Shown: positions 41,760 through 55,928, counted from the stretch's first letter. The stretch: DNA of 64,000 nt from a bacterium (GCA_018780265.1 JADMJV010000021.1:1-64000); one strand, 5' to 3'. A program made the numbers and translations. Notes: generated by a model from the sequence alone, not told the origin.

Positions 41760-41919
41760 TTGAGCCTCCTGAGGTGTGTGGACCCCTCCTCAGCCGGGAG
41801 CGGTTCTCCGTCCCTTACGTTACGCGGTGAGGGCAACTGCATGTGTGAGGAAAATGTGAACGTATGCATAGATCTACCCGGCAAAGGGCCTCGCCGCCAG
41901 CTTGAGGAAGGCTGAGCTC

Positions 41920-44271
41920 ATGGCAGAACTGAAGCCCTCCAGAAGTCTGGGATTTGGCCTGGGTCTGGTCACCGGTGCCACGCTGGTGTTACAGACCGCT
42001 CTAACGCGCCTGTTTTCGGTGATCTTTCTCTACCATTTTGCACTGGTGGCCGTCTCCTCGGCCATGTTCGGAATGGCCGTGGGGGCCGTGCTGGTGCACT
42101 TGTGGCCGCGAGTTTTTCCGCAAGATCAGTCGCAACAACGAGCCGCAGACTGCGCCAGTTTCATGGGCCTGGCCACCGTGGTTGGACTGCTTGGCTGCCT
42201 CTACGTTCCCTTTGAACTTTCCACCAACGCCCTCGGCATCATGGGATTTCTGGCCTGGATGCTCTTTGTGGTCACGCCCTTTCTGTTCTCGGGACTGACC
42301 GTCTGCTTATGTCTGACTCGCTTTCCCCAGATCGTGGGAAAACTCTACGCCTTCGACCTGGCCGGGGCGGCTCTGGGCTGCCTGTTGGCGGCCGGCCTGC
42401 TCAATCACGTGGGACCTTACAACACCGTTTTGCTGGCCGCCTGGTTGGCTGCCATGGGTGGAGTGCTCATGTCCACTTCCACCGCTCGCCGGCGCCTGAC
42501 TGGTGCGGTAGCCGCGCTGCTCGGCCTGGTGCTGGTGGGCAACTTCTTCACCCACACCCTCAAAATCAAATACGTGCTGGGGCGCCCTTACGCCCCCAAA
42601 GACACTCGCTATGAGCTGTGGAACGCATTTTCTTACCTGTTTGTGAGCGCACCCCGCGACAAAATGATCCTCTGGGGTCCCGGAGACCGCTTCAAGCCCA
42701 GCCTCTTTAAGCCCGAATACATGTTGCTGCTCATGGACACCCGAGCGGCCACCCGCATGATTCGCTTCGACGGCGACTACAACGCCGTCAGCTGGCTCAA
42801 TTGGGACGTCATCAGCCTGGCCCACGACCTGCGTCCCACCGGACGGGTGCTGGTGATTGGCCCGGGTGGCGGCCGCGACATTCTGGCCGCCTTGATTCCC
42901 GCCAAGGGAAACCGCCTGGTTACCGGGGTCGAGATCAATCCTTTGACCCGCCACGTCGTCATGGACCTGGAGAAAGACTACAACGGCCTGAGCAAAGTCC
43001 CCGGAGTCAATTACGTCAACGATGAAGCCCGCAGTTGGCTGGCCCGCGATCCCAACCGCTATCAGGTGATCACCGTGCCCCTGGTGGACACCTGGGCCTC
43101 TACCTCAGCGGGCGCTTTTGCCCTCAGCGAAAACAGCCTCTACACCGTGGAGGCCTTTCGCCTCTACTTGCAACACCTGGAGGCGAGAGGGGTCTTGAGC
43201 GTCAGCCGCTGGTGGCATGCGGGCAGTATCGGCGAAACTCACCGATTGATGATCCTGGCAGCCGAAGCTTTACGCCAGCAAGGCATTTCTCAGCCCCGCC
43301 AACACCTTATTCTGGCCCTGGGCGCCGACGTGGTCAACCTGTTGGCCAGCCCCAGCCCCTTCACGCCAGAAGATGAGGCCAGCCTGCGCCAGGCCTGCGA
43401 ACAGCGCGGCTACCAGGTGTTGCTCAGCCCATCCCATTGCGCCGATCCTCGGCTGGAGAACTTTCTGGCTCACCCCGAACAGGCCAGCGGTTGGTTTGGC
43501 GACGTGCACCTGGACCTGTCGCCCACCACCGACAACCGCCCCTATTTCTTTCACAGTTTCTCGTTGCGCAATCTGTTTACGGGCAACCTCAAAACGGCTA
43601 CAGGTACCACCACATCCGAACGCGACGCCATGGTTATCCTGTCCTCGCTGGTGGTGGCTGTCACGGCCGTGGCTGTGGGCTTCTGGGTTTGGCCGGCGCG
43701 CGCCTGCACCGGGTCTCAGCGGGCCATGCTCACTTACTTCGCCTGCCTGGGCTTTGGATTCATGTATTTTGAGTCTGCCCAGTTGCAGCGTCTCAACCTG
43801 TTTTTGGGCTATCCCGTCTACTCTATCACTGTGGTGCTTTTCACCCTGTTGCTTTCTTCTTCACTGGGGTCGTGGTGGGCCGAAAAGCGCCTGCGCCTCA
43901 ACCAGTTTCCCACCGTCAAGGTGGCCCTGGTGCTGATCGGCTCGCTGCTGCTGGTCAACTTCCTTACCCTGCAGGCTCTGCACAGCCTGGCCGGGGCCAC
44001 CACCGCAGTCCGCATCGTGGTGGCCGGCCTGCTCATGTCCATGATGGGTCTGCCGCTGGGAACCATGTTCCCCTACGGCCTGCAACTGGCCCAAAAGGCC
44101 GAAGTCTCACTGGCCTGGTGCTGGGCCCTCAATGGGGCAGCCTCGGCGGCCGCCGCCGTCTATGCCATCGCTTTCTCGCTCAGCTACGGGATCGAATTTA
44201 CTTACTGGTTGAGTGTGCTCAGCTACCTGGTGGCTTTCGCCCTGATCTGGAAGCCCGCTAGTCGAGTTTGA
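41920..44271 (+). CDS. Polytopic membrane protein fused to a spermidine-synthase-like (PABS/AdoMet-MTase fold) domain.
   Basis: N- and C-terminal multi-TM regions flank 'RVLVIGPGGGRDILAAL' (GxGxG SAM-binding) and 'VTGVEINP'. GAGGAAGG Shine-Dalgarno before the ATG at 41920. Confidence 0.55.
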   Translation: MAELKPSRSLGFGLGLVTGATLVLQTALTRLFSVIFLYHFALVAVSSAMFGMAVGAVLVHLWPRVFPQDQSQQRAADCASFMGLATVVGLLGCLYVPFELSTNALGIMGFLAWMLFVVTPFLFSGLTVCLCLTRFPQIVGKLYAFDLAGAALGCLLAAGLLNHVGPYNTVLLAAWLAAMGGVLMSTSTARRRLTGAVAALLGLVLVGNFFTHTLKIKYVLGRPYAPKDTRYELWNAFSYLFVSAPRDKMILWGPGDRFKPSLFKPEYMLLLMDTRAATRMIRFDGDYNAVSWLNWDVISLAHDLRPTGRVLVIGPGGGRDILAALIPAKGNRLVTGVEINPLTRHVVMDLEKDYNGLSKVPGVNYVNDEARSWLARDPNRYQVITVPLVDTWASTSAGAFALSENSLYTVEAFRLYLQHLEARGVLSVSRWWHAGSIGETHRLMILAAEALRQQGISQPRQHLILALGADVVNLLASPSPFTPEDEASLRQACEQRGYQVLLSPSHCADPRLENFLAHPEQASGWFGDVHLDLSPTTDNRPYFFHSFSLRNLFTGNLKTATGTTTSERDAMVILSSLVVAVTAVAVGFWVWPARACTGSQRAMLTYFACLGFGFMYFESAQLQRLNLFLGYPVYSITVVLFTLLLSSSLGSWWAEKRLRLNQFPTVKVALVLIGSLLLVNFLTLQALHSLAGATTAVRIVVAGLLMSMMGLPLGTMFPYGLQLAQKAEVSLAWCWALNGAASAAAAVYAIAFSLSYGIEFTYWLSVLSYLVAFALIWKPASRV

Positions 44272-47764: not shown

Positions 47765-48205
47765 TTGGTGGCAGGGGTCGCAGGCGTTTCGACAAATGAA
47801 CCAGTCGTGGATCTAGACGCGGAAATGAAGCTTCCAGCTCTCCGGCAAACCGGAGCGCTGGCCGAGTACACCGAGTCGCCGGGCTCGGAGTTGATGGGGT
47901 TTCTGGCCTTTTTGCGCTCGGAACTGACCAAAGCCATTGAGATTTTGCGCGAAGAAACCGCAGAATTGCTGGATGACGGCGATGCTTTCGAGCGCATTCA
48001 AACCCTCAACCGGCTTCGTCAGCGCAAAAACCGATTGGAAGCCCACCTCATCAAAGAAATCCGTGAAGTTCGCGAATTGGCCCGGTCTCTTATGGGTACT
48101 TCCGACAAGGCCGTCGTAGCTACCATTAATAACGAGTGTAAGTCGGTCATCGAGTCGATCGGCGGGGGCCTGCGCGAGTTGATTCAGGAGTTCGGCGTAG
48201 ACTGA
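47765..48205 (+). CDS. Hypothetical protein immediately downstream of the kinase.
   Basis: Begins 3 nt after the kinase stop. Helical sequence, no motif recognised. Confidence 0.3.
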   Translation: MVAGVAGVSTNEPVVDLDAEMKLPALRQTGALAEYTESPGSELMGFLAFLRSELTKAIEILREETAELLDDGDAFERIQTLNRLRQRKNRLEAHLIKEIREVRELARSLMGTSDKAVVATINNECKSVIESIGGGLRELIQEFGVD

Positions 48206-49383
48206 AGCTGCTGGGCCTTTTGCTGGGCCTGGTTCATCAACTCCTCAGCCGCATGCAAACCCTCCAACTCCCGTTGACAGGCCCGCTGGTCCTGGTTGCC
48301 CAGGGCCTCCTTCAAAGCCAGCAGGGCCGTTTCAGTGGCGCAGGCTCCAGCCGTCATCATTTCTTTCAGTTCCTGATCTAAAGCCGCGTCTTTTTCCATC
48401 TGACGGCGGCCCTGGCTCAGTCGCTGGCGAAACTGGTCGAGCGCCGATTCGCAGCGGGACGTTTCGACTTCTCCCCGCAACCACTGTTCTAGCTGGCCTT
48501 CGACTTCGACAAAGCTTTGAAAACGCGGTTGGGCCTCCGGAGAGGGTGGGGCAGGCAGCGCGGAGACGGCGGGTAGGGGCAGGCGCGCCGAGCACGACCC
48601 GCATTGGGGACGGTCTCCGGGCTGCTGCTGCCCGCAACGGGGGCAGATCACCGGTGGGTAGAGCGATTGCATCAGGTTTTGATGGGCCACCGACATCGCT
48701 TCTACCCCTTTGAGCAGGTCTTCCAGTCGCTCCTCAATCTCCCAGCTATGTTGCATCCGCAGACTTTGCAAGGCGCGCTGCAGATTGCGACTGAAACTTG
48801 CCAACTGCACCGTGCACAGGTCCAGGGACTCGGCGACCGCGTCGTTTTCAGGTTGAACTTTGCCCAAGGCCTGCTCCAGTTGGCGGCACGCCTCCAGGCT
48901 TTTTTCCAGAACCAGCGAGGCTTTTTGATGAGAGATGGCACCGTCCAGTGTTTGGCGAAGGAGAAACTTCAGTTCGCCGGTCAGTCCCGGTCCGTAGCCC
49001 TGCTGCCACACCTCTTCCTGGGCTCGCAACTGGGCGCCCAGGGCCTGCAATTGGGTGATGGCCTGATGGACGCGCTGACAGCCCGTCTCCAGGTCTTCTT
49101 TGCGGCCTACTTCTAAAAAACTCTCCAGGCGACGGCCTCCACCACGGAATCTCTCAAACTCCTGATCAAACTGACTCTGGAGTTGGACCACCAAAGGCGT
49201 ACGGGGATAGAAGCGCAAGGAGTCACGGAATTGCTTTTCCAGGGCACGCCGAAAAGACTGTAGCTCGGCTACATGACGGGAAAACTGCAGACTCTCTTTC
49301 AGGTCGGGCTGACTGATCAGGGTTTGGGCAACCCTGAGCAATGCATCCACACCCGGCGAGCCGGTAGAATCCAGATCGATCAT
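48184..49383 (-). CDS. Coiled-coil hypothetical protein with a CPxCG zinc-ribbon.
   Basis: Contains 'ICPRCGQQQPGDRPQCGSCSA'. It lies 12 nt downstream of the Gly-rich small gene on the same strand. Confidence 0.4.
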   Translation of the reverse strand: MIDLDSTGSPGVDALLRVAQTLISQPDLKESLQFSRHVAELQSFRRALEKQFRDSLRFYPRTPLVVQLQSQFDQEFERFRGGGRRLESFLEVGRKEDLETGCQRVHQAITQLQALGAQLRAQEEVWQQGYGPGLTGELKFLLRQTLDGAISHQKASLVLEKSLEACRQLEQALGKVQPENDAVAESLDLCTVQLASFSRNLQRALQSLRMQHSWEIEERLEDLLKGVEAMSVAHQNLMQSLYPPVICPRCGQQQPGDRPQCGSCSARLPLPAVSALPAPPSPEAQPRFQSFVEVEGQLEQWLRGEVETSRCESALDQFRQRLSQGRRQMEKDAALDQELKEMMTAGACATETALLALKEALGNQDQRACQRELEGLHAAEELMNQAQQKAQQLQSTPNS

Positions 49384-49395
49384 AGTAGGGCTAAC

Positions 49396-49734
49396 TTAGA
49401 AGCACCAGGAGTTGTAACCGCCCCCGCCCAGGCTTGAACCCAAGCCCCAGCCAATGAACGACCCGATGGCGTTGCCAATCATGGCGCCGGGCGCCGCCCC
49501 CCAGAAACCGCCCAACCCAAAACCAGCCAGGCCCCCTAGCACGGTGCCAATGCCACTGCCCACCATACTGCCGGTGTAGCCGCCCATATAAGAGCCCATC
49601 GGGTTGTAGTAGCCGTAGCCCCCACACATATTGTTCATGTAGCCCATGCCGTAGGAGGGACAACAGCTCATCATGGGGCTGTAGCCCCAACTGTTACCGA
49701 TTCCCAGGCCACAACCATAACCACCTAGATACAT
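49396..49734 (-). CDS. Gly/Tyr/Met/Cys-rich small protein (112 aa) with a C-terminal glycine-zipper region.
   Basis: AAGGAG Shine-Dalgarno 7 nt before the ATG at 49734. The longer annotated ORF starts with unlikely sequence. 'MYLGGYGCGLGIGNSWGYSPMMSCCPSYGMGYMNNMCGGYGYYNPMGSYMGGY...GSGIGTVLGGLAGFGLGGFWGAAPGAMIGNAIGSFIGWGLGSSLGGGGYNSWCF'. Confidence 0.55.
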   Translation of the reverse strand: MYLGGYGCGLGIGNSWGYSPMMSCCPSYGMGYMNNMCGGYGYYNPMGSYMGGYTGSMVGSGIGTVLGGLAGFGLGGFWGAAPGAMIGNAIGSFIGWGLGSSLGGGGYNSWCF

Positions 49735-49814
49735 GGAATCACTCCTTGACTCTATTACCCGTTTACTATCCCACAGCTGGAGGCGAGGGGAAAGGCCTGA
49801 ATGTTTCCAGAATG

Positions 49815-50267
49815 TTACAGTGACGAATCCAACTCCATGATCCAACCCTCGGTAGGGTCTTTGAACCAATAGAGCATCATCTCTGGTTCTTTGATCTGAT
49901 CGCTATTCAGAATCTTCAGTACGGTCTTGATCTTCACGCGACCGCGCCGGCCGCTACTGTCGATGTCGGTTTTCAGGATCTCGTAGCGCATAATGTCGAG
50001 CTGTTCTGGCTTGACGGCAAACCACTGCTGGATTTTTTTAGGAATATTGGCCTTTTTGCGGTCCTCGGTCGAGTGGTAACTGGCGGCGTGCTGAAAGTCC
50101 TTGAAGCGCAGGTCCTCCATAAACTTCAGGGATTGCTGGGACAGGTGGTTACGGTCGGCGAGCGACCCCATCCCCTGCCCTTCGCCTCCCGAGCTGCGGT
50201 CTTTCAAAACCAGTAAAGTGAATGCAAGTGCGCCCAGCAGCAGAAATACCAGCAGGATTTTTTTCAT
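49815..50267 (-). CDS. N-terminally membrane-anchored/secreted hypothetical protein.
   Basis: Starts 'MKKILLVFLLLGALAFTLLVL'. Its start lies 1 nt after the ABC-2 permease stop. Confidence 0.4.
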   Translation of the reverse strand: MKKILLVFLLLGALAFTLLVLKDRSSGGEGQGMGSLADRNHLSQQSLKFMEDLRFKDFQHAASYHSTEDRKKANIPKKIQQWFAVKPEQLDIMRYEILKTDIDSSGRRGRVKIKTVLKILNSDQIKEPEMMLYWFKDPTEGWIMELDSSL

Positions 50268-50268
50268 G

Positions 50269-51012
50269 TCAGCAACTCGCCCGCCCGGCCCGCAGCCGCA
50301 GTAGAAAGTAGCTACCGGCCAGCAAAACCAGCGACAGCAACGAAACCATACTGGCCGATTGAAGCAAGGTGATGTAGGAGTAATCCACTTTGGTTACCTC
50401 TTTGAGTGCCTGGTAGGTCCAGGAAATAAACGAGAAGTCTTCGAGCCAGAGTACCAGGTTGCTGGCATGCTCGTGGGACAGCACCATCTCGGAAAAGACC
50501 ATCTGAGGGATCAGCACCAACACCACAGTGCCAACCGCCTTGTCCGAATTGGACATCAGGCACGAAATCAGCAATCCCAGACAGATGCCGCTGAGCGATG
50601 CCAGCCACAGGTAGAGAAAGTGCAGCGCCACAGGCCCGCCCAGGGGCACATAGAGATTGACCAGGTAGGCCAGGCAAAGGCATTGCACAAAGCTCAACAG
50701 TCCCAGCACCAGGCACTTGGATAGAAGATAGGGGCCTACCTGAACTCCCAGTCGGGCCTCGCGATCGAAGATCGCCTCCTCCTTCACCACCTCGCGACAG
50801 GCATTGGACGTGCCAAACCAGAGGGCTGAGAAGGCCAGCAAGTAGTAAAGAGAATTGGTGGCGGCATCCACATCGCGCCAGTTAAGCACCGCGAACAGAG
50901 CGATGGCCGGCGCCTGGATGAGCAGCAAAAAGGTGTTGCCGCGGTCAGCCAGGACGATTTCCAGGTAACGCTCACAGAGCACGTTGAGCTGTTCCCCACG
51001 GGTAGCTGCCAT
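50269..51012 (-). CDS. ABC-2 type transporter permease.
   Basis: Six predicted TM helices, ~247 aa, directly downstream of the ABC ATPase. Confidence 0.6.
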   Translation of the reverse strand: MAATRGEQLNVLCERYLEIVLADRGNTFLLLIQAPAIALFAVLNWRDVDAATNSLYYLLAFSALWFGTSNACREVVKEEAIFDREARLGVQVGPYLLSKCLVLGLLSFVQCLCLAYLVNLYVPLGGPVALHFLYLWLASLSGICLGLLISCLMSNSDKAVGTVVLVLIPQMVFSEMVLSHEHASNLVLWLEDFSFISWTYQALKEVTKVDYSYITLLQSASMVSLLSLVLLAGSYFLLRLRAGRASC

Positions 51013-51031
51013 CAGGGTTTCATTTCGACTT

Positions 51032-51832
51032 TCAGGAAGCTCGGCCTGCTACATAAGCTGCGTGCAGTGGGCTGGCCGCAAATCTCTGCATGCCCTGAAG
51101 GGGATCCTGTTGGGCCAGTGACTTATAGATCTGCATCAAAGTGGGCACTCCAAAGTAGGCTGCCGCCTGACCGGGTGGACCCAGGTAGATCAGGTGACCC
51201 TTTTGCAGCACCACCACCAGGTCCAGGGACTCCACGCTTTGCATCACGTGGGTGCTCATCACCAGCGTGCGCCCTCCCTGGCACAGACCTCGACAACTCA
51301 GCATAAAACTGTCTTCCAAAGCGGGGTCGAGTCCAGCCGTAGGTTCGTCAAGAAAGAGCACGGGAGGGTCCCCCATCAATTCAACGGCGATGCTGACCCG
51401 CTTACGCTGCCCGCCAGAGAGCCGATCGGTGCGCAGCGTACGACGCTCGCCCAACTCCAGCAAACCGATCACCTGATCCACCCGATTTGTCAGTTCGGTC
51501 CCCTTCAATCCCAGCAACCGTCCCGTATAATTCAGGGCGCGTTCCACTTTCAGGCTGCCATGGACGACATCGTCTTGGGGCACAAATCCCAGGCGGCGAC
51601 GTTCCTCGGTGCTGAGATCGGGAAAGGGTCTGCCGTTAAAGCTGACCTGCCCGCTCGAGGGGGCCTGCAGCCCGGCCAGGCAACGCAGCAAGGTTGACTT
51701 GCCACACCCGCTAGGTCCCAGCACCCCCACAAACTCGCCGGCCAGAAAGGACAGGTTGAGGGGTTGCAACAGGACCGTTCGGCCCACTTTGTAGCTCAAG
51801 CCTTGAGCGCTGATCGCAGCGGCCGTTCCCAT
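51032..51832 (-). CDS. ABC transporter ATP-binding protein.
   Basis: Walker A 'GPSGCGKST', signature 'LSGGQRKRVSIA', Walker B 'LFLDEPT'. Start chosen at M (51832) about 10 aa before the NBD. The ORF to 52093 would overlap the divergent gene's promoter region. Confidence 0.8.
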   Translation of the reverse strand: MGTAAAISAQGLSYKVGRTVLLQPLNLSFLAGEFVGVLGPSGCGKSTLLRCLAGLQAPSSGQVSFNGRPFPDLSTEERRRLGFVPQDDVVHGSLKVERALNYTGRLLGLKGTELTNRVDQVIGLLELGERRTLRTDRLSGGQRKRVSIAVELMGDPPVLFLDEPTAGLDPALEDSFMLSCRGLCQGGRTLVMSTHVMQSVESLDLVVVLQKGHLIYLGPPGQAAAYFGVPTLMQIYKSLAQQDPLQGMQRFAASPLHAAYVAGRAS

Positions 51833-51893
51833 AGGCCACAGTCCTTCTCTGCTGGCGGAGGGTAAGCCTCCGGGTAGAGAGAACACCCCGCCT

Positions 51894-52559
51894 ATGAAAA
51901 AACCACTGGGCACAGCCCTTTTGTTAGCCGTGCTGGCCGGCACCGCCCAGGCAGGGGACATCACCGGCACAATCACCCTCGGTTCGGCACCCGGCGCTCG
52001 CAAGCAGGGCCAAACTCGCGCCAAGTATGATGACAAAGACCATTCTGGCGACCAGGTCCCTAACTCGGAAAGCGAAGTCGAGAATGTGGTCATCTACCTG
52101 GAAGGCAAGGGGCTAAAATGCACCCCGGTGACCAAGATGGGCTCGGGCAACACCTTTGACCAGAAAAACAAAGAGTTTCTCCCCCACGTGTTGCCCATTG
52201 CTAAGGGCTCGAAAGTATTTTTCAAAAACAAAGATCCCTTTCCCCATCACGTTTATTCCGTATCCAATCCCGGCAATTTCGAGATTATGAAGCATGGCAG
52301 CACGGTGCGCAGCCACGATTTTGACGGCAGCGGCGAGGTTGAAATCTTCTGCGGAATCCACACCAAAATGAACGCCTATCTGCTGGTGGTCGATACTGAC
52401 TACTTTTGCAAACCCGGAGCCGACGGAAAGTATCGCCTGGGGGCGGTGCCTGCCGGCGACTATGCCCTGATGGTCTGGCACCCCCGGTTGCCCAAGCCGG
52501 AAAAACGTATGATTACCGTGCCGGCCTCGGGTCCCCTCAAATTGGACCTCAAACTCTAG
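51894..52559 (+). CDS. Secreted cupredoxin-like (type-1 copper site-like) protein.
   Basis: Signal peptide 'MKKPLGTALLLAVLAGTAQA'. 'FPHHVY' and 'FCGIHTKM' suggest His...Cys-x2-His-x2-Met ligands. Confidence 0.4.
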   Translation: MKKPLGTALLLAVLAGTAQAGDITGTITLGSAPGARKQGQTRAKYDDKDHSGDQVPNSESEVENVVIYLEGKGLKCTPVTKMGSGNTFDQKNKEFLPHVLPIAKGSKVFFKNKDPFPHHVYSVSNPGNFEIMKHGSTVRSHDFDGSGEVEIFCGIHTKMNAYLLVVDTDYFCKPGADGKYRLGAVPAGDYALMVWHPRLPKPEKRMITVPASGPLKLDLKL

Positions 52560-52562
52560 CCC

Positions 52563-54422
52563 ATGCGGCTGCGCACCTGGCTGCTGTTGCTCTTTGGGTC
52601 TTTGCTGGTGTGCACCGGCATCGCTCTGAGTAGCCTTGCTCAATATCAGGCTCGCGTCAATCTGCGCCTTTCGGTTCAGCAGCAACTCGAGAAGGGGGCT
52701 CGCGTCACCTACGAGCGCAACGACCTCACCACCTTGAGAGTGCTTGGCTATCGCATTACCGACAGCCCCTCCTGGCACGAATACCGGGCTGTTTTTGTGA
52801 CCCTCAACGGTCCTTACCAAACATTGTTGGAAGGGTCGACCCCGGACAAATTGCTCCAGCAACTGGGCACGGCCAGCGTGGACGACGGCAAGCCCTGGAC
52901 CTCGTCCGAATTCAACCCCGAAAGCAAGGGGCGCAATGCCGATTACTACGCCTGTTGGCAGGCATTGCAGGGATTGATGCGAGACACCGGTGTGACTCTG
53001 TTCGAGGAATCCGAAGGCTCGCTGCAGTTGCTGATTCTCACCGATAAGGTGGGCACGCCCTTTCTGGAGATGCACACCAGCCCGCAGGGGACAAATCCCT
53101 CCGCCGAGGACAGTTGGGCCGCTCCTCAGCTGGGCAACGACCTGCGTGACCTGCTCAAGAAGAACTCGTCAGCCGCCGAGGAGGGCTATCTGCGTCACAG
53201 CGACGGCATGGTCTATCTGGTGCGCGTTCAACCTTTTTCTTCGGGCGGCCAGTTGGTGTTAGGCAGGCGCCTCGACCAGCGCTTCGAGGAACGTCTCGAA
53301 CGCCAGTCGCCGGGGGGGGAATTTCGGGTCTCCGACGCCTCCAGCGCGGCCGATTTGAAAGGCCAGCCGTTGCGCAATCCGCCCTACCTGGACCATTTCG
53401 AACCTCTACCTCAGATCGGAAAGCCGTCCCAGACCGTCTCCCATCTCTGGGAGTTTCGCTCACTCAATTCGATCGAGGCCTATCTGCGCAAGTTGACTCA
53501 AGGCATTGCCAGTTTGGGACTGGGCGCGCTGGCGGTGGGTCTGTTGGGCATCTCCCTGGCCACCCGCTCGGTCTCCACCCAGATCGGCCGCCTTTCGAGG
53601 CGAATGAATGAGGTGGGCAGCGGTACTCTGGGCGAGGATCTGCCTCCAGCCGGGCCCCTCGAGGTGCGCCAGGCCACCGAATCTTTCAATCAGATGGTGC
53701 ATCAATTGCGCCAAAAAGAGATGTTGGCCAAGATGGTGCCCAAGCAGGCCCGCGAGGCCATTGAGCAGGATCAAACTCAAGGCGGCAGGGTGGTGGCGCG
53801 GCGCATTCGCACCACCATTTTATTCTCCGATATTCGCGGCTTTACCAACCTCTCCGAGCGCTTGCCTCCCACCGAGGTCATGAAGTTGCTGGACATCTAT
53901 CTGTCCAAGATGACCACCATTATCGAAGACCATGGCGGGGACGTCAACGAATACATCGGCGACGCCATTCTGGCCGACTTCGAAGACAAGCCCGAGGCGC
54001 CCGGAGCCGAGCGGGCTGTGCGCGCTTGCTGGCAGATGCTGCAAGCCCTGGAAGATTTGCGCAAACAAGGGCTGCACCCCGAGCTACAAACACTGCGTCA
54101 GGGCTTGGGTTTGCACACCGGCGAACTGGTCAAAGGCGAGGTAGGCGCTGCTCATCGTTCCAAGTTCGCCCTCATCGGCGACACCGTCAATCTGGCCGCC
54201 CGCATTCAAGACCGTTCCCGCGACGGCAAGCACACGGGCATTTTGCTCAGCCAGGAATCGCGCCAGGATGTGTCGACTTTCGAGGTCGCACTGTTCGGCG
54301 ATGAGTCGTTTAAGGGGAAGACGGGTCTGATCCGCGTCTGGGAAATTGTCCGCCCTTGTTGCGACGCTCCAGAAACAGGCGCACCAGGCGGCGCCGATAA
54401 GGCCCCCACTGGGCCGGGCTAA
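52563..54422 (+). CDS. Membrane-bound class III adenylate/guanylate cyclase with a periplasmic sensor and HAMP domain.
   Basis: 'TILFSDIRGFTNLSE...NEYIGDAILADF...GLHTGELVKGEVGA...FALIGDTVNLAARIQ' is a CHD signature. An N-terminal TM, the periplasmic domain and a second TM precede it. Confidence 0.8.
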   Translation: MRLRTWLLLLFGSLLVCTGIALSSLAQYQARVNLRLSVQQQLEKGARVTYERNDLTTLRVLGYRITDSPSWHEYRAVFVTLNGPYQTLLEGSTPDKLLQQLGTASVDDGKPWTSSEFNPESKGRNADYYACWQALQGLMRDTGVTLFEESEGSLQLLILTDKVGTPFLEMHTSPQGTNPSAEDSWAAPQLGNDLRDLLKKNSSAAEEGYLRHSDGMVYLVRVQPFSSGGQLVLGRRLDQRFEERLERQSPGGEFRVSDASSAADLKGQPLRNPPYLDHFEPLPQIGKPSQTVSHLWEFRSLNSIEAYLRKLTQGIASLGLGALAVGLLGISLATRSVSTQIGRLSRRMNEVGSGTLGEDLPPAGPLEVRQATESFNQMVHQLRQKEMLAKMVPKQAREAIEQDQTQGGRVVARRIRTTILFSDIRGFTNLSERLPPTEVMKLLDIYLSKMTTIIEDHGGDVNEYIGDAILADFEDKPEAPGAERAVRACWQMLQALEDLRKQGLHPELQTLRQGLGLHTGELVKGEVGAAHRSKFALIGDTVNLAARIQDRSRDGKHTGILLSQESRQDVSTFEVALFGDESFKGKTGLIRVWEIVRPCCDAPETGAPGGADKAPTGPG

Positions 54423-54744
54423 GCTGCTCTTTGCATTCGAAAATCTGGTCCACGCTCAGACTTTGGCGCTCTTTTTCTAGCTCCAAAATTTCGCCGAGCT
54501 TGCTTTTCACGGCTTCTTTCTCGGTGTTGTCCTGTTGCAGCAGTTGGGCCAACTCCACTCGGCGGGCTTCCAGCTTGATCTGAACATCTTGCACTCGCCC
54601 CTGAAAACGGCTCTGGATGGTGCGCAAAGCGCGCCTTTGTTTGGGACTCAAGTCCAGGGCCGGTTCGTCCTCGGGTTGGGCCCACAGGGGCGTCAGCCAG
54701 AAGCCCGCCAGCATCAGCCCGATCACGCCACGACGCCACATCAA
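54310..54744 (-). CDS. Periplasmic LTXXQ-motif (Spy/CpxP-like) stress protein.
   Basis: Signal peptide, then 'LSPKQRRAL' and 'LSPAQW' LTxxQ-like motifs. Last gene of the ECF sigma operon. Confidence 0.5.
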   Translation of the reverse strand: MMWRRGVIGLMLAGFWLTPLWAQPEDEPALDLSPKQRRALRTIQSRFQGRVQDVQIKLEARRVELAQLLQQDNTEKEAVKSKLGEILELEKERQSLSVDQIFECKEQLSPAQWGPYRRRLVRLFLERRNKGGQFPRRGSDPSSP

Positions 54745-55263
54745 TCAGTGACCCTCCAGGGTTTCGTCCAGGGCCAGTTCAGAGCAGGCCAGGTAGTCAT
54801 CGCTCAGATGACCCAAAGGCAACGACTCATCCAACGGCTCCTCCTGGGCCAGCGCATCGACACTGGGGATCACCTCAAAGTCGACGTCCCATTCTGGCAC
54901 CGGAGCAGCCGCCACCACAGCCGGCGCGGGTGTGGTGGCTGGAGGGGTGGAAAACAGATTGACGACCAGGACCAGCCCTGCTGCCACGGCCACTCCCCCG
55001 ATCCAACGCCGCCACACCGACCACAAAGTGCGCGAGGGAGCCGGCTCCAAACGAATCTTTTCCCACACTTTGGCTCGAAAGAGTGGACCGGGCTCCATCT
55101 CAGGCAGTTGCCCGAGCAGCTCCCAGCTTGCCTGCAACTCTTTCCACTCCACAGCACATCCAGCGCATTGGCCCAGATGTTCCTCCAGGCTCAGCAGGCG
55201 GGGCTCTTCGAGCACACCGTCGAGTCGCTCACTCATCCATTCTTGGGCTTGCTGACACTTCAC
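54745..55263 (-). CDS. Anti-sigma factor (zf-HC2, single TM).
   Basis: 'HLGQCAGCAVEW' (H-x3-C-x2-C) and TM 'IGGVAVAAGLVLVVNLF'. 4-nt overlap with the sigma gene. Confidence 0.6.
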   Translation of the reverse strand: MKCQQAQEWMSERLDGVLEEPRLLSLEEHLGQCAGCAVEWKELQASWELLGQLPEMEPGPLFRAKVWEKIRLEPAPSRTLWSVWRRWIGGVAVAAGLVLVVNLFSTPPATTPAPAVVAAAPVPEWDVDFEVIPSVDALAQEEPLDESLPLGHLSDDYLACSELALDETLEGH

Positions 55264-55928
55264 AGGTCAACTCCTTCCGCCAACAGGGGCTCAAGCCTCT
55301 TCTTCAAGGCCAGGCGAGCCCGATGCAGTTTGGCTTTCACGGCCGACACGGTTTGGCGCGTCAGTTGGGCCAACTCGTCGTAGCCCAGGTTTTGAAATCG
55401 TTGCAAGATCAGTAGTTCTCTCTGTTCATCCGAGAGGGTCGAAATGGCCGCCTGCACCTGGGCGGCCGTTTCCTGGCTCTGCAGCATGGCCTCGGCACCA
55501 ACCTCTGGATCGGGCACGTCCCATGTCGCTTCGGGATCGTTGGGTCGACTGTCCAGACTCTGGGTGCGACGTCGCTGATTCTTCTCGCGCGCGTTGCGGC
55601 ACAAATTCAGGGTGATTTGGTAAAGGTAGGTGAAGAATTTGGCGCGAGGCTCATAGCGCGGGGCAGCCCGATAGACGCGCAAAAAGACTTCCTGGGCCAG
55701 ATCCTCGGCATTTTCAGCATCGCCCGTAAAGCGAAAGACAAGGTTAACCACCGTTCGCTGGTACTTGTCCATCAGACGGTTGAAGGCCTCCGCGTCGCCG
55801 GCTTTCACCCGCAGCATGAGGTCAACGTCCTCGTCCACGTGAGATCCCTCCAGCCGTAAGGCGGCCGGAGCCGCATTCTGTGCCTGTTTCAACCTATGCC
55901 CGAAAGGGTGGGTAAGGACCCAATTCAT
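55260..55928 (-). CDS. ECF (sigma-70 family, group 4) RNA polymerase sigma factor.
   Basis: Region 2 'LAQEVFLRVYRAAPRYEP...FFTYLYQITLNLCRN' and region 4 'LSDEQRELLILQRFQNLGYDELAQLTRQTVSAVKAKLHRAR'. Confidence 0.85.
   Translation of the reverse strand: MNWVLTHPFGHRLKQAQNAAPAALRLEGSHVDEDVDLMLRVKAGDAEAFNRLMDKYQRTVVNLVFRFTGDAENAEDLAQEVFLRVYRAAPRYEPRAKFFTYLYQITLNLCRNAREKNQRRRTQSLDSRPNDPEATWDVPDPEVGAEAMLQSQETAAQVQAAISTLSDEQRELLILQRFQNLGYDELAQLTRQTVSAVKAKLHRARLALKKRLEPLLAEGVDL

Follow-up and report, generated by a model that had tools for sequence, protein, structure and literature searches.

A gene for a glycine-rich protein of 112 amino acids (aa), in a stretch of bacterial DNA of 64,000 nucleotides (nt) (GCA_018780265.1 JADMJV010000021.1:1-64000; the window, meaning this whole stretch), forms an invariant unit with the zinc-ribbon gene that follows it, as judged from gene order in relatives. 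The ATP-binding cassette (ABC) ATPase, ABC-2 permease and 150-aa protein genes that lie upstream in the window's clade are, by the same comparison, a separate and more widely distributed module. Modeling and analogy lead us to a tentative reading, to which we give a little less than even weight, in which the glycine-rich protein would form a hairpin in the inner membrane that self-associates via its glycine faces and is bound by its zinc-ribbon partner. A first-pass annotation of this DNA had instead proposed a toxin, bacteriocin or structural peptide exported by the neighboring ABC transporter. That proposal fares poorly because the ABC genes are not constant companions of the glycine-rich gene, no C39 or fusion partner is present, synteny is vertical and the protein core is conserved.

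The 112-aa open reading frame (ORF) has orthologues at the same position in L001, L003-L008, L012 and L013, and also in the distant loci L009, L010, L016 and L017. For close pairs, the ratio of nonsynonymous to synonymous substitution rates (dN/dS; pairwise Nei-Gojobori) is 0.06-0.10 at a dS of about 0.6-1.0. Only the glycine-rich frame is open throughout the 10 loci tested, and in high-GC loci the GC content at third codon positions peaks in this frame. Because orthologues occupy the same position, dN/dS is low and one frame is consistently open, these comparisons identify the ORF as a real gene under purifying selection. Thus, non-conservation of the ORF, named at the outset as an outcome that would undermine the annotation, is not what we find. 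An overlapping 99-aa ORF in an alternative frame (49391-49690) was rejected as a by-product of the glycine codons; it is not consistently open in relatives. The corresponding alternative-frame protein (P0002) occurs solely in one frameshifted Logan contig, L002 (SRR28161539_604113), where indels at 360-712 split the glycine-rich gene into calls of 38 and 79 aa, the second of which runs in the alternative frame. This split probably reflects an error of assembly or sequencing; otherwise it marks a pseudogene.

The protein itself has an unusual anatomy. It contains no Asp, Glu, Lys, Arg or His, and across the family charged residues number only 0-8 per ~100 residues. Glycine accounts for 36 of its 112 residues (32.1%), short of the more than 35% given in the first-pass annotation, whose 46-residue quotation of the C-terminal stretch matches the translation exactly. 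From G47 to G103, glycine recurs at a strict period of four for 15 consecutive repeats, a run reached in none of 20,000 composition-preserving shuffles, which bears out the description of the product as a glycine-zipper small protein. Most family members carry 11-15 such repeats (0 of 20,000 shuffles per protein, except 1 of 20,000 for L004), and none of the 12 period-4 glycines at positions 55-99 varies within the family.

An AlphaFold2 model built on a six-sequence alignment places residues 1-44 in a disordered segment (predicted local distance difference test, pLDDT, <50) and predicts helices at 45-75 and 77-103 with pLDDT 66-78. With its 15 period-4 glycines spread over these two adjacent helices, the modeled protein has the arrangement of a two-transmembrane glycine zipper. 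W78 and W96, 18 residues apart and flanking helix 2, are invariant, as is M36-C37-G38, within a motif that reads MCG(G/P) across the family. Length and sequence are free to vary over the N-terminal 35-45 residues, which carry GY/GC, GF/GL or GM repeats and remain uncharged and rich in Gly, aromatic residues and Met. The Met content of family members is 4-18% and their Cys content 1-9%, and several of them have His- or Cys-rich C-terminal tails. In relatives, Arg and His are located only before helix 1 or after helix 2; therefore, a topology with both ends inside fits the positive-inside rule, which suggests that both termini are cytoplasmic.

Direct reading of the sequences revealed neither a lipobox nor a Sec signal, there being no basic n-region and no hydrophobic h-region. 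The residue before the conserved Cys is Met or Tyr (xMCG), not the Gly, Ala or Ser of a lipobox, and a lipoprotein reading was ruled out for want of that motif. The earlier remark that no signal peptide or double-Gly leader is evident agrees with our own reading of an N-terminus that has no charged or hydrophobic leader pattern. Existing glycine-zipper profiles in Pfam recognize the protein poorly: the window protein scores 7 bits against PF13488 (Gly-zipper_Omp), below the curated gathering threshold of 25, and the best E-values among six family members are 0.0038 for PF13488, 0.034 for PF13441 (Gly-zipper_YMGG) and 0.31 for PF05433 (Rick_17kDa_Anti), all sub-threshold. A Pfam scan of the window's proteins gave no match for the glycine-rich protein at E <= 0.1, and a Foldseek search with the low-confidence model gave no significant match, with SlyB (7ojf) ranking third at E = 1.2.

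Comparison of gene neighborhoods in relatives, a check suggested by the first-pass annotation, identified the zinc-ribbon gene as the constant companion of the glycine-rich gene. With the zinc-ribbon protein as query, 35 homologues were found at 36-93% identity. The order ABC ATPase, ABC-2 permease, ~150-aa protein, glycine-rich protein and zinc-ribbon protein occurs in L003, L004, L005, L006 and L008, and the same order is seen in the P0039 contig and L013, which break off inside the zinc-ribbon gene or shortly ahead of it. On longer contigs the flanking genes are retained as well, and on one side encode an extracytoplasmic function (ECF) sigma factor, a zf-HC2 anti-sigma factor, a Metal_resist protein, a HAMP cyclase and a cupredoxin-like protein, and on the other a convergent protein of ~130 aa, a Ser/Thr kinase and a PduO-type adenosyltransferase. 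In every locus, among them four distant ones in which its product is 24% identical, the zinc-ribbon gene follows the glycine-rich gene, the spacing varying between an overlap of 7 nt and a gap of 137 nt.

More distant relatives separate this pair from the ABC genes. In L010/P0096 (Vulcanimicrobiota), L016/P0049 and L017/P0042, the glycine-rich gene is followed by a zinc-ribbon homologue without ABC genes; these distant homologues were recognized by BLASTP (24% identity, E = 1e-15) and by hhalign (probabilities of 98.8-99.2%). The upstream genes in the three loci are unrelated and divergent, and include an adenosyltransferase gene, argS and a gene for an outer-membrane-factor-like protein. L009/P0069 carries the pair as well, on a contig too short upstream to show the preceding genes. 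Conversely, two metagenomic loci found with the 150-aa protein as query, L014 and L015, carry genes for an ABC ATPase, an ABC-2 permease and a 149-aa protein without the pair. These loci have 29-34% GC, their 149-aa protein is 47-52% identical to the window's 150-aa protein, and L014 continues into rpsF-ssb-rpsR. Because the pair occurs without the ABC genes and the ABC genes occur without the pair, we distinguish two modules, and the five genes first proposed to be one ABC-2 transporter operon are separable. The co-occurrence of the glycine-rich gene with transporter genes is limited to the window's own clade. As an observation in its own right, the three-gene module of L014 and L015 lies in an unrelated low-GC lineage, and its ~149-aa anchored protein belongs to no described family.

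The 80-nt spacer before the glycine-rich gene is the biggest gap in the cluster, and its sequence suggests that it probably holds an internal promoter for the pair. The blocks TGGAAAC, CCTTTCC and TGGGATA(G/C/T)T are kept across L001-L008 though synonymous sites are saturated. TGGGATAnT resembles an extended -10 element (TGn + GATAnT), and TGGGATAcT is also found 5' of the glycine-rich gene in L010, where the preceding gene differs. Simple sigma-70 promoter and terminator scans remained at background level, the promoter scan making no call at the TGGGATAnT site, and the spacer has no Rfam match. Readings of the spacer motifs as sigma-54 or ECF-type promoters, judged by eye, were rejected; the spacing is not conserved.

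The family is very small. A word-indexed homology search with the single glycine-rich protein returned two matches, one of them the frameshifted L002/P0002, and a word-indexed profile search with the family returned six relatives. An exhaustive hidden Markov model search of 1.84 billion cluster representatives gave 85 matches at E <= 1e-3, of which about ten are true small relatives (including P0039-P0042, P0049, P0069 and P0096); the remaining majority, unrelated proteins with VGS/VGD repeats, were discarded. Named sources of the pair are "Candidatus Eremiobacterota", "Vulcanimicrobiota bacterium" and "Xenobiales", and of 185,579 species-representative genomes only two, each of them a Vulcanimicrobiota or EREM bin, matched the conserved motifs. 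No relatives were found among the viral contigs of IMG/VR or the plasmids of PLSDB, and searches of Pfam, NCBIfam, PADLOC and PDB sequences returned nothing above threshold for the glycine-rich protein. On the evidence of these searches, it represents a small, previously uncatalogued family restricted to Eremiobacterota/Vulcanimicrobiota. The expectation that database homology would be unlikely was therefore correct in that there is no Pfam or NCBIfam family, and too pessimistic in that a small dedicated family of about ten members exists.

The 399-aa partner is better resolved by modeling. The AlphaFold2 model, run on 27 sequences, is confident (mean pLDDT 87) and all-helical. Stacked four-helix bundles take up residues 10-241, and another four-helix bundle, at the C-terminus, residues 289-394; between them lie a small putative zinc ribbon (about 244-267) and a Pro-rich linker that is disordered (274-283). 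Among the 27 homologues, zinc-ribbon profiles were matched by DZR_2 in 23, DZR in 16 and Zn_Ribbon_1 in 15. The best E-value for DZR_2 was 2.4e-5, and the window partner itself scores 20.1 bits against a cut-off of 27. A sequence search of the PDB gave no match for the partner. Because it has no hydrophobic segment, its sequence marks it as a cytoplasmic protein.

How might the two proteins work together? In the reading that we tentatively prefer, the hairpin would insert in the cytoplasmic membrane, its two ends facing the cytoplasm, copies of it would pack laterally via their glycine faces as SlyB-type two-transmembrane glycine-zipper domains do, and the zinc-ribbon protein, whose downstream gene is often translationally coupled, would bind the cytoplasmic parts. 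The pair would probably have a housekeeping, constitutive, stress-related or membrane-homeostasis role rather than one in antagonism. Several observations weigh against this membrane hairpin. The zipper helices have marginal Hessa-scale sums of +2.3 to +6 kcal/mol (one value +3.8). Transmembrane segments of the neighboring proteins span -2.6 to +4.8 kcal/mol, with strong segments at -2.6 to -0.8 and the weaker segments of the permease at +3.0 to +4.8, comparable to the zipper. Because the zipper energies resemble those of weak and not strong neighboring segments, insertion of the modeled hairpin is plausible, not assured. Furthermore, the model was built on six sequences and its helices have a pLDDT of 66-78. 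The period-4 glycine run is unbroken through the supposed turn, a feature also compatible with a tandem-repeat origin or with a non-hairpin assembly such as amyloid. The two proteins may interact physically, a step that we infer from gene adjacency alone. Finally, within the window's clade the pair is always co-oriented with the ABC module and lies 70-130 nt behind it, and a functional link to that module specific to the clade is possible.

The invariance of the pair as a tight two-gene cassette, in differing contexts among distant relatives, would also suit a self-contained membrane toxin and its cytoplasmic neutralizer, in which the zipper protein depolarizes the membrane and the zinc-ribbon protein restrains or triggers it, in the manner of toxin-antitoxin or abortive-infection pairs. 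There is precedent in the glycine-zipper toxins TelE and EsxX, which depolarize membranes, EsxX being accompanied by a cytoplasmic immunity protein (PMC10434224, PMC12744356). We nevertheless consider such a role unlikely: the proteins numbered 2-7 have no PADLOC match, the ABC ATPase giving a generic P-loop match only; the cassette is present in a single copy in the window, in a housekeeping neighborhood conserved over a broad clade; it was not found on phages or plasmids; a multi-bundle partner of ~400 aa is atypical of antitoxins; and dN/dS is low.

A second alternative, which we rate as quite improbable, is that the glycine-rich protein is an accessory subunit or regulator of the adjoining ABC-2 transporter in the window's clade, modulating the pump or coupling it to the zinc-ribbon protein. 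In its favor, the gene is constantly close to the ABC-2/150-aa module and in the same orientation in at least eight loci, over partner identities of 36-93%. The independence of the two modules elsewhere speaks against it, as does their separation in the window by the cluster's biggest gap with its promoter-like element.

Two further proposals, both very unlikely in our estimation, draw on the composition of the protein. In one, a Met-, Cys- and His-bearing membrane protein would bind or buffer soft metals, e.g., Cu(I), in a region of metal and envelope stress genes. The Met and Cys content, the near-invariant MCG, the His- or Cys-rich tails of several members and the Metal_resist, sigma/anti-sigma and cupredoxin-like neighbors in the clade are in keeping with this idea; however, just one Cys is conserved, the C-terminal Cys and His are not, the metal-related neighbors are absent in L010, L016 and L017, and there is no known metal-binding motif. 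In the other, the protein would be a membrane-tethered, charge-free low-complexity domain of Tyr, Phe or Met with Gly, in which the (Gxxx)15 zipper forms rings or sheets in the inner membrane and thereby brings cohesive N-terminal tails together on its cytoplasmic side, as a patch resembling a gel or condensate that the partner organizes or regulates. The N-terminal low-complexity composition is reminiscent of FUS or FG-nucleoporin sequences. If this were true, the protein would be a phylum-specific, membrane-anchored, self-assembling bacterial scaffold without described counterpart.

Least probable of the readings that we graded is a glycine-zipper toxin (a bacteriocin, microcin or Cdz-like protein), exported or retained at the surface, with the ABC-2 transporter as its exporter or as a LanFEG-like self-immunity pump. 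Points in its favor are that glycine zippers typify CdzC/CdzD and some class II bacteriocins (PMC5380434), that in all close relatives the gene comes 80 nt after the ABC-2 module and is co-oriented with it, and that there is a very weak match to MccV (E = 9.2). Against these points, the ABC ATPase and ABC2_membrane proteins are a plain pair without a C39 peptidase domain; the flanking genes include no HlyD-type, TolC-type or OEP family; there is no leader peptide and no obvious small membrane immunity gene among the window's ORFs; and the pair and the ABC genes occur apart, in L010, L016 and L017 and in L014 and L015, respectively. Because the same chromosomal neighborhood is shared where the partner is merely 36-93% identical, and no viral or plasmid relatives were found (IMG/VR, PLSDB), the locus appears to be vertically inherited, with no mobile context, in contrast to bacteriocin islands. 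A conserved C-terminal zipper behind a variable N-terminus, under strong purifying selection, is the inverse of the leader/core pattern of secreted peptides. In addition, the sole cultured member of the phylum is diderm (PMC9758169), and export past an outer membrane would need further components. A precursor of a ribosomally synthesized and post-translationally modified peptide was rejected, with no modifying enzymes nearby and an N-terminus that is variable, not conserved.

The layout of the locus is given in Table 1. All five of the co-directional minus-strand genes first reported in 48184-51832 are present. From the ABC ATPase gene to the zinc-ribbon gene, the intergenic gaps are 19, 1, 80 and 12 nt, so that the range of 12-80 nt given at first holds for three junctions and fails for the 1-nt junction. 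The AAGGAG site lies 7 nt 5' of the ATG of the glycine-rich gene, in agreement with the strong ribosome-binding site claimed there.

Table 1. Genes, protein segments and conserved elements of the locus, in window coordinates.
Feature	Position	Strand	Basis or remark
ABC transporter ATPase, 266 aa	51032-51832	-	PF00005 (ABC_tran) E = 3e-31; counted from ATG at 51832
ABC-2 type permease, 247 aa	50269-51012	-	PF01061 (ABC2_membrane) E = 8e-19
150-aa protein, N-terminal hydrophobic anchor/signal followed by a highly conserved ~120-aa domain	49815-50267	-	
80-nt spacer with conserved blocks TGGAAAC, CCTTTCC, TGGGATAGT (49765-49773) and AAGGAG (49742-49747)	49735-49814	-	Candidate internal promoter
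112-aa Gly/Tyr/Met/Cys-rich uncharged small protein (focal gene)	49396-49734	-	
Residues 1-44 of the 112-aa protein, variable low-complexity Gly/aromatic/Met/Cys segment ending in near-invariant MCGGYG motif	49603-49734	-	pLDDT <50
Residues 45-103 of the 112-aa protein, (Gxxx)15 glycine zipper, predicted two-helix hairpin	49426-49602	-	AlphaFold2, shuffles, invariant columns
399-aa helical protein with CxxC...CxxC zinc ribbon	48184-49383	-	Sub-threshold DZR_2 match (Pfam)
Predicted zinc ribbon of the 399-aa protein, CPRC-x10-CGSC, residues 247-264	48592-48645	-	Cys nearly invariant in 27 homologues
Convergent ~126-aa helical protein (~126-130 aa)	47825-48205	+	3' end overlaps zinc-ribbon gene by 22 nt

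The ABC ATPase ORF is open as far as 52093, and homologue lengths of 254-286 aa together with the ATG at 51832 favor the latter as the start. The permease weakly resembles TIGR00955, the family of ABCG-like pigment-precursor permeases. The 150-aa protein is 54-81% identical between loci, has a strong N-terminal hydrophobic segment (-2.6 kcal/mol, Hessa-scale sum) and gave no Pfam, NCBIfam or PDB match. The convergent ~126-aa protein is present and overlaps the zinc-ribbon gene in L001, L003, L004, L005, L006 and L008, at 50-86% identity, and has no family or PDB match.

Beyond the ABC ATPase gene, about 61 nt (51833-51893) separate its start from that of a divergent cupredoxin-like/CarboxypepD_reg gene (51894-52559), a spacing of 60-62 nt that is also seen in L003, L004 and L008. 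A HAMP adenylate/guanylate cyclase gene follows (52563-54422). In L003, L004 and the P0039 contig, the ABC-2 cluster is accompanied in conserved synteny by the ECF sigma, zf-HC2 anti-sigma and Metal_resist (Spy/ZraP-like) triad that the window carries at 54310-55928 (minus strand); in L005 the triad is directly divergent from the ABC ATPase gene. This arrangement hints at a regulatory link to envelope or metal stress. Elsewhere in the window, an ORF at 21569-22141 (plus strand; likely start near 21638) encodes a low-complexity Gly/Met/Pro-rich protein of 167-190 aa that contains a run of GPGGPGGPGGPGG and a basic helix, KKMRKLMKQMQRLM, and is otherwise poor in charges, and a 203-aa ORF at 22594-23205 (plus strand) ends in a glycine-zipper-like hairpin (VGLVLVGVAGALGGMPGSLGYALAGSAWPGLVTAGGAAVGMAYYKTRPW). 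Neither belongs to a Pfam family, and the genome may hold several unrelated glycine-zipper proteins. The product of a gene at 41902-44271 (plus strand), 789 aa long, is a polytopic membrane protein whose central domain is soluble; it matches no Pfam family at E <= 0.001.

Our findings add an uncatalogued small-protein family, with an obligate zinc-ribbon partner, from a phylum with almost no experimental biology. The family joins an extreme glycine zipper to a charge-free low-complexity domain. They also correct a tempting misreading, as a glycine-rich peptide beside ABC genes does not amount to a bacteriocin. If the pair forms a membrane assembly, the principle of SlyB-type glycine zippers would extend to inner-membrane proteins that are not lipoproteins; otherwise, the family would be a lineage-specific protein of modest general impact.

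Several known systems share part of this architecture. YMGGYTGSMVG, with which helix 1 starts, and the GY/GF/GM repeats of the N-terminus are similar to the 'YG-box' glycine zipper of SMN and to Tyr/Gly or Phe/Gly low-complexity domains (PMC8287954). Such YG-zipper and sticker-spacer low-complexity sequences drive oligomerization (PMC8287954). The likeness to SMN is one of composition and motif only, SMN-type proteins being eukaryotic and soluble. The type VII secretion system (T7SS) LXG effectors TelE and EsxX, like the proteins described here, combine a putatively membrane-acting glycine-zipper segment with a neighboring gene for a cytoplasmic binding protein (PMC10434224, PMC12744356). Their zippers, however, are C-terminal domains of large secreted LXG proteins of Firmicutes, whereas the present locus has no LXG domain, T7SS, or mobile or polymorphic context. 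CdzC and CdzD of Caulobacter (PMC5380434) resemble the glycine-rich protein as very hydrophobic, aggregation-prone glycine zippers of ~85-110 aa encoded beside ABC genes. They depend on type I secretion, on a leader peptide and on an immunity protein, and their distribution is patchy (PMC5380434), features that are not found at the locus described here.

The closest comparison is with SlyB, YfgH, OsmB and YiaD (PF05433, PF13488, PF13441), in which GxxxG is likewise repeated over a two-helix hairpin. Under envelope stress, SlyB assembles laterally into ring oligomers in membranes, and YfgH has been predicted to assemble in a similar way (bioRxiv 10.64898/2025.12.22.696046). Sequence similarity to these proteins is weak and fold similarity (7ojf) is non-significant. 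The outer-membrane proteins SlyB, OsmB and YfgH carry a lipoprotein signal, whereas the glycine-rich protein has no signal peptide or lipobox. It differs further in its far longer, uninterrupted 15-repeat zipper, its charge-free low-complexity N-terminus and its zinc-ribbon partner gene. What the two groups would share is lateral self-association, predicted here for the glycine-rich protein, and a setting related to envelope stress: SlyB-type proteins act in envelope stress, and the locus lies near genes of the envelope-stress type.

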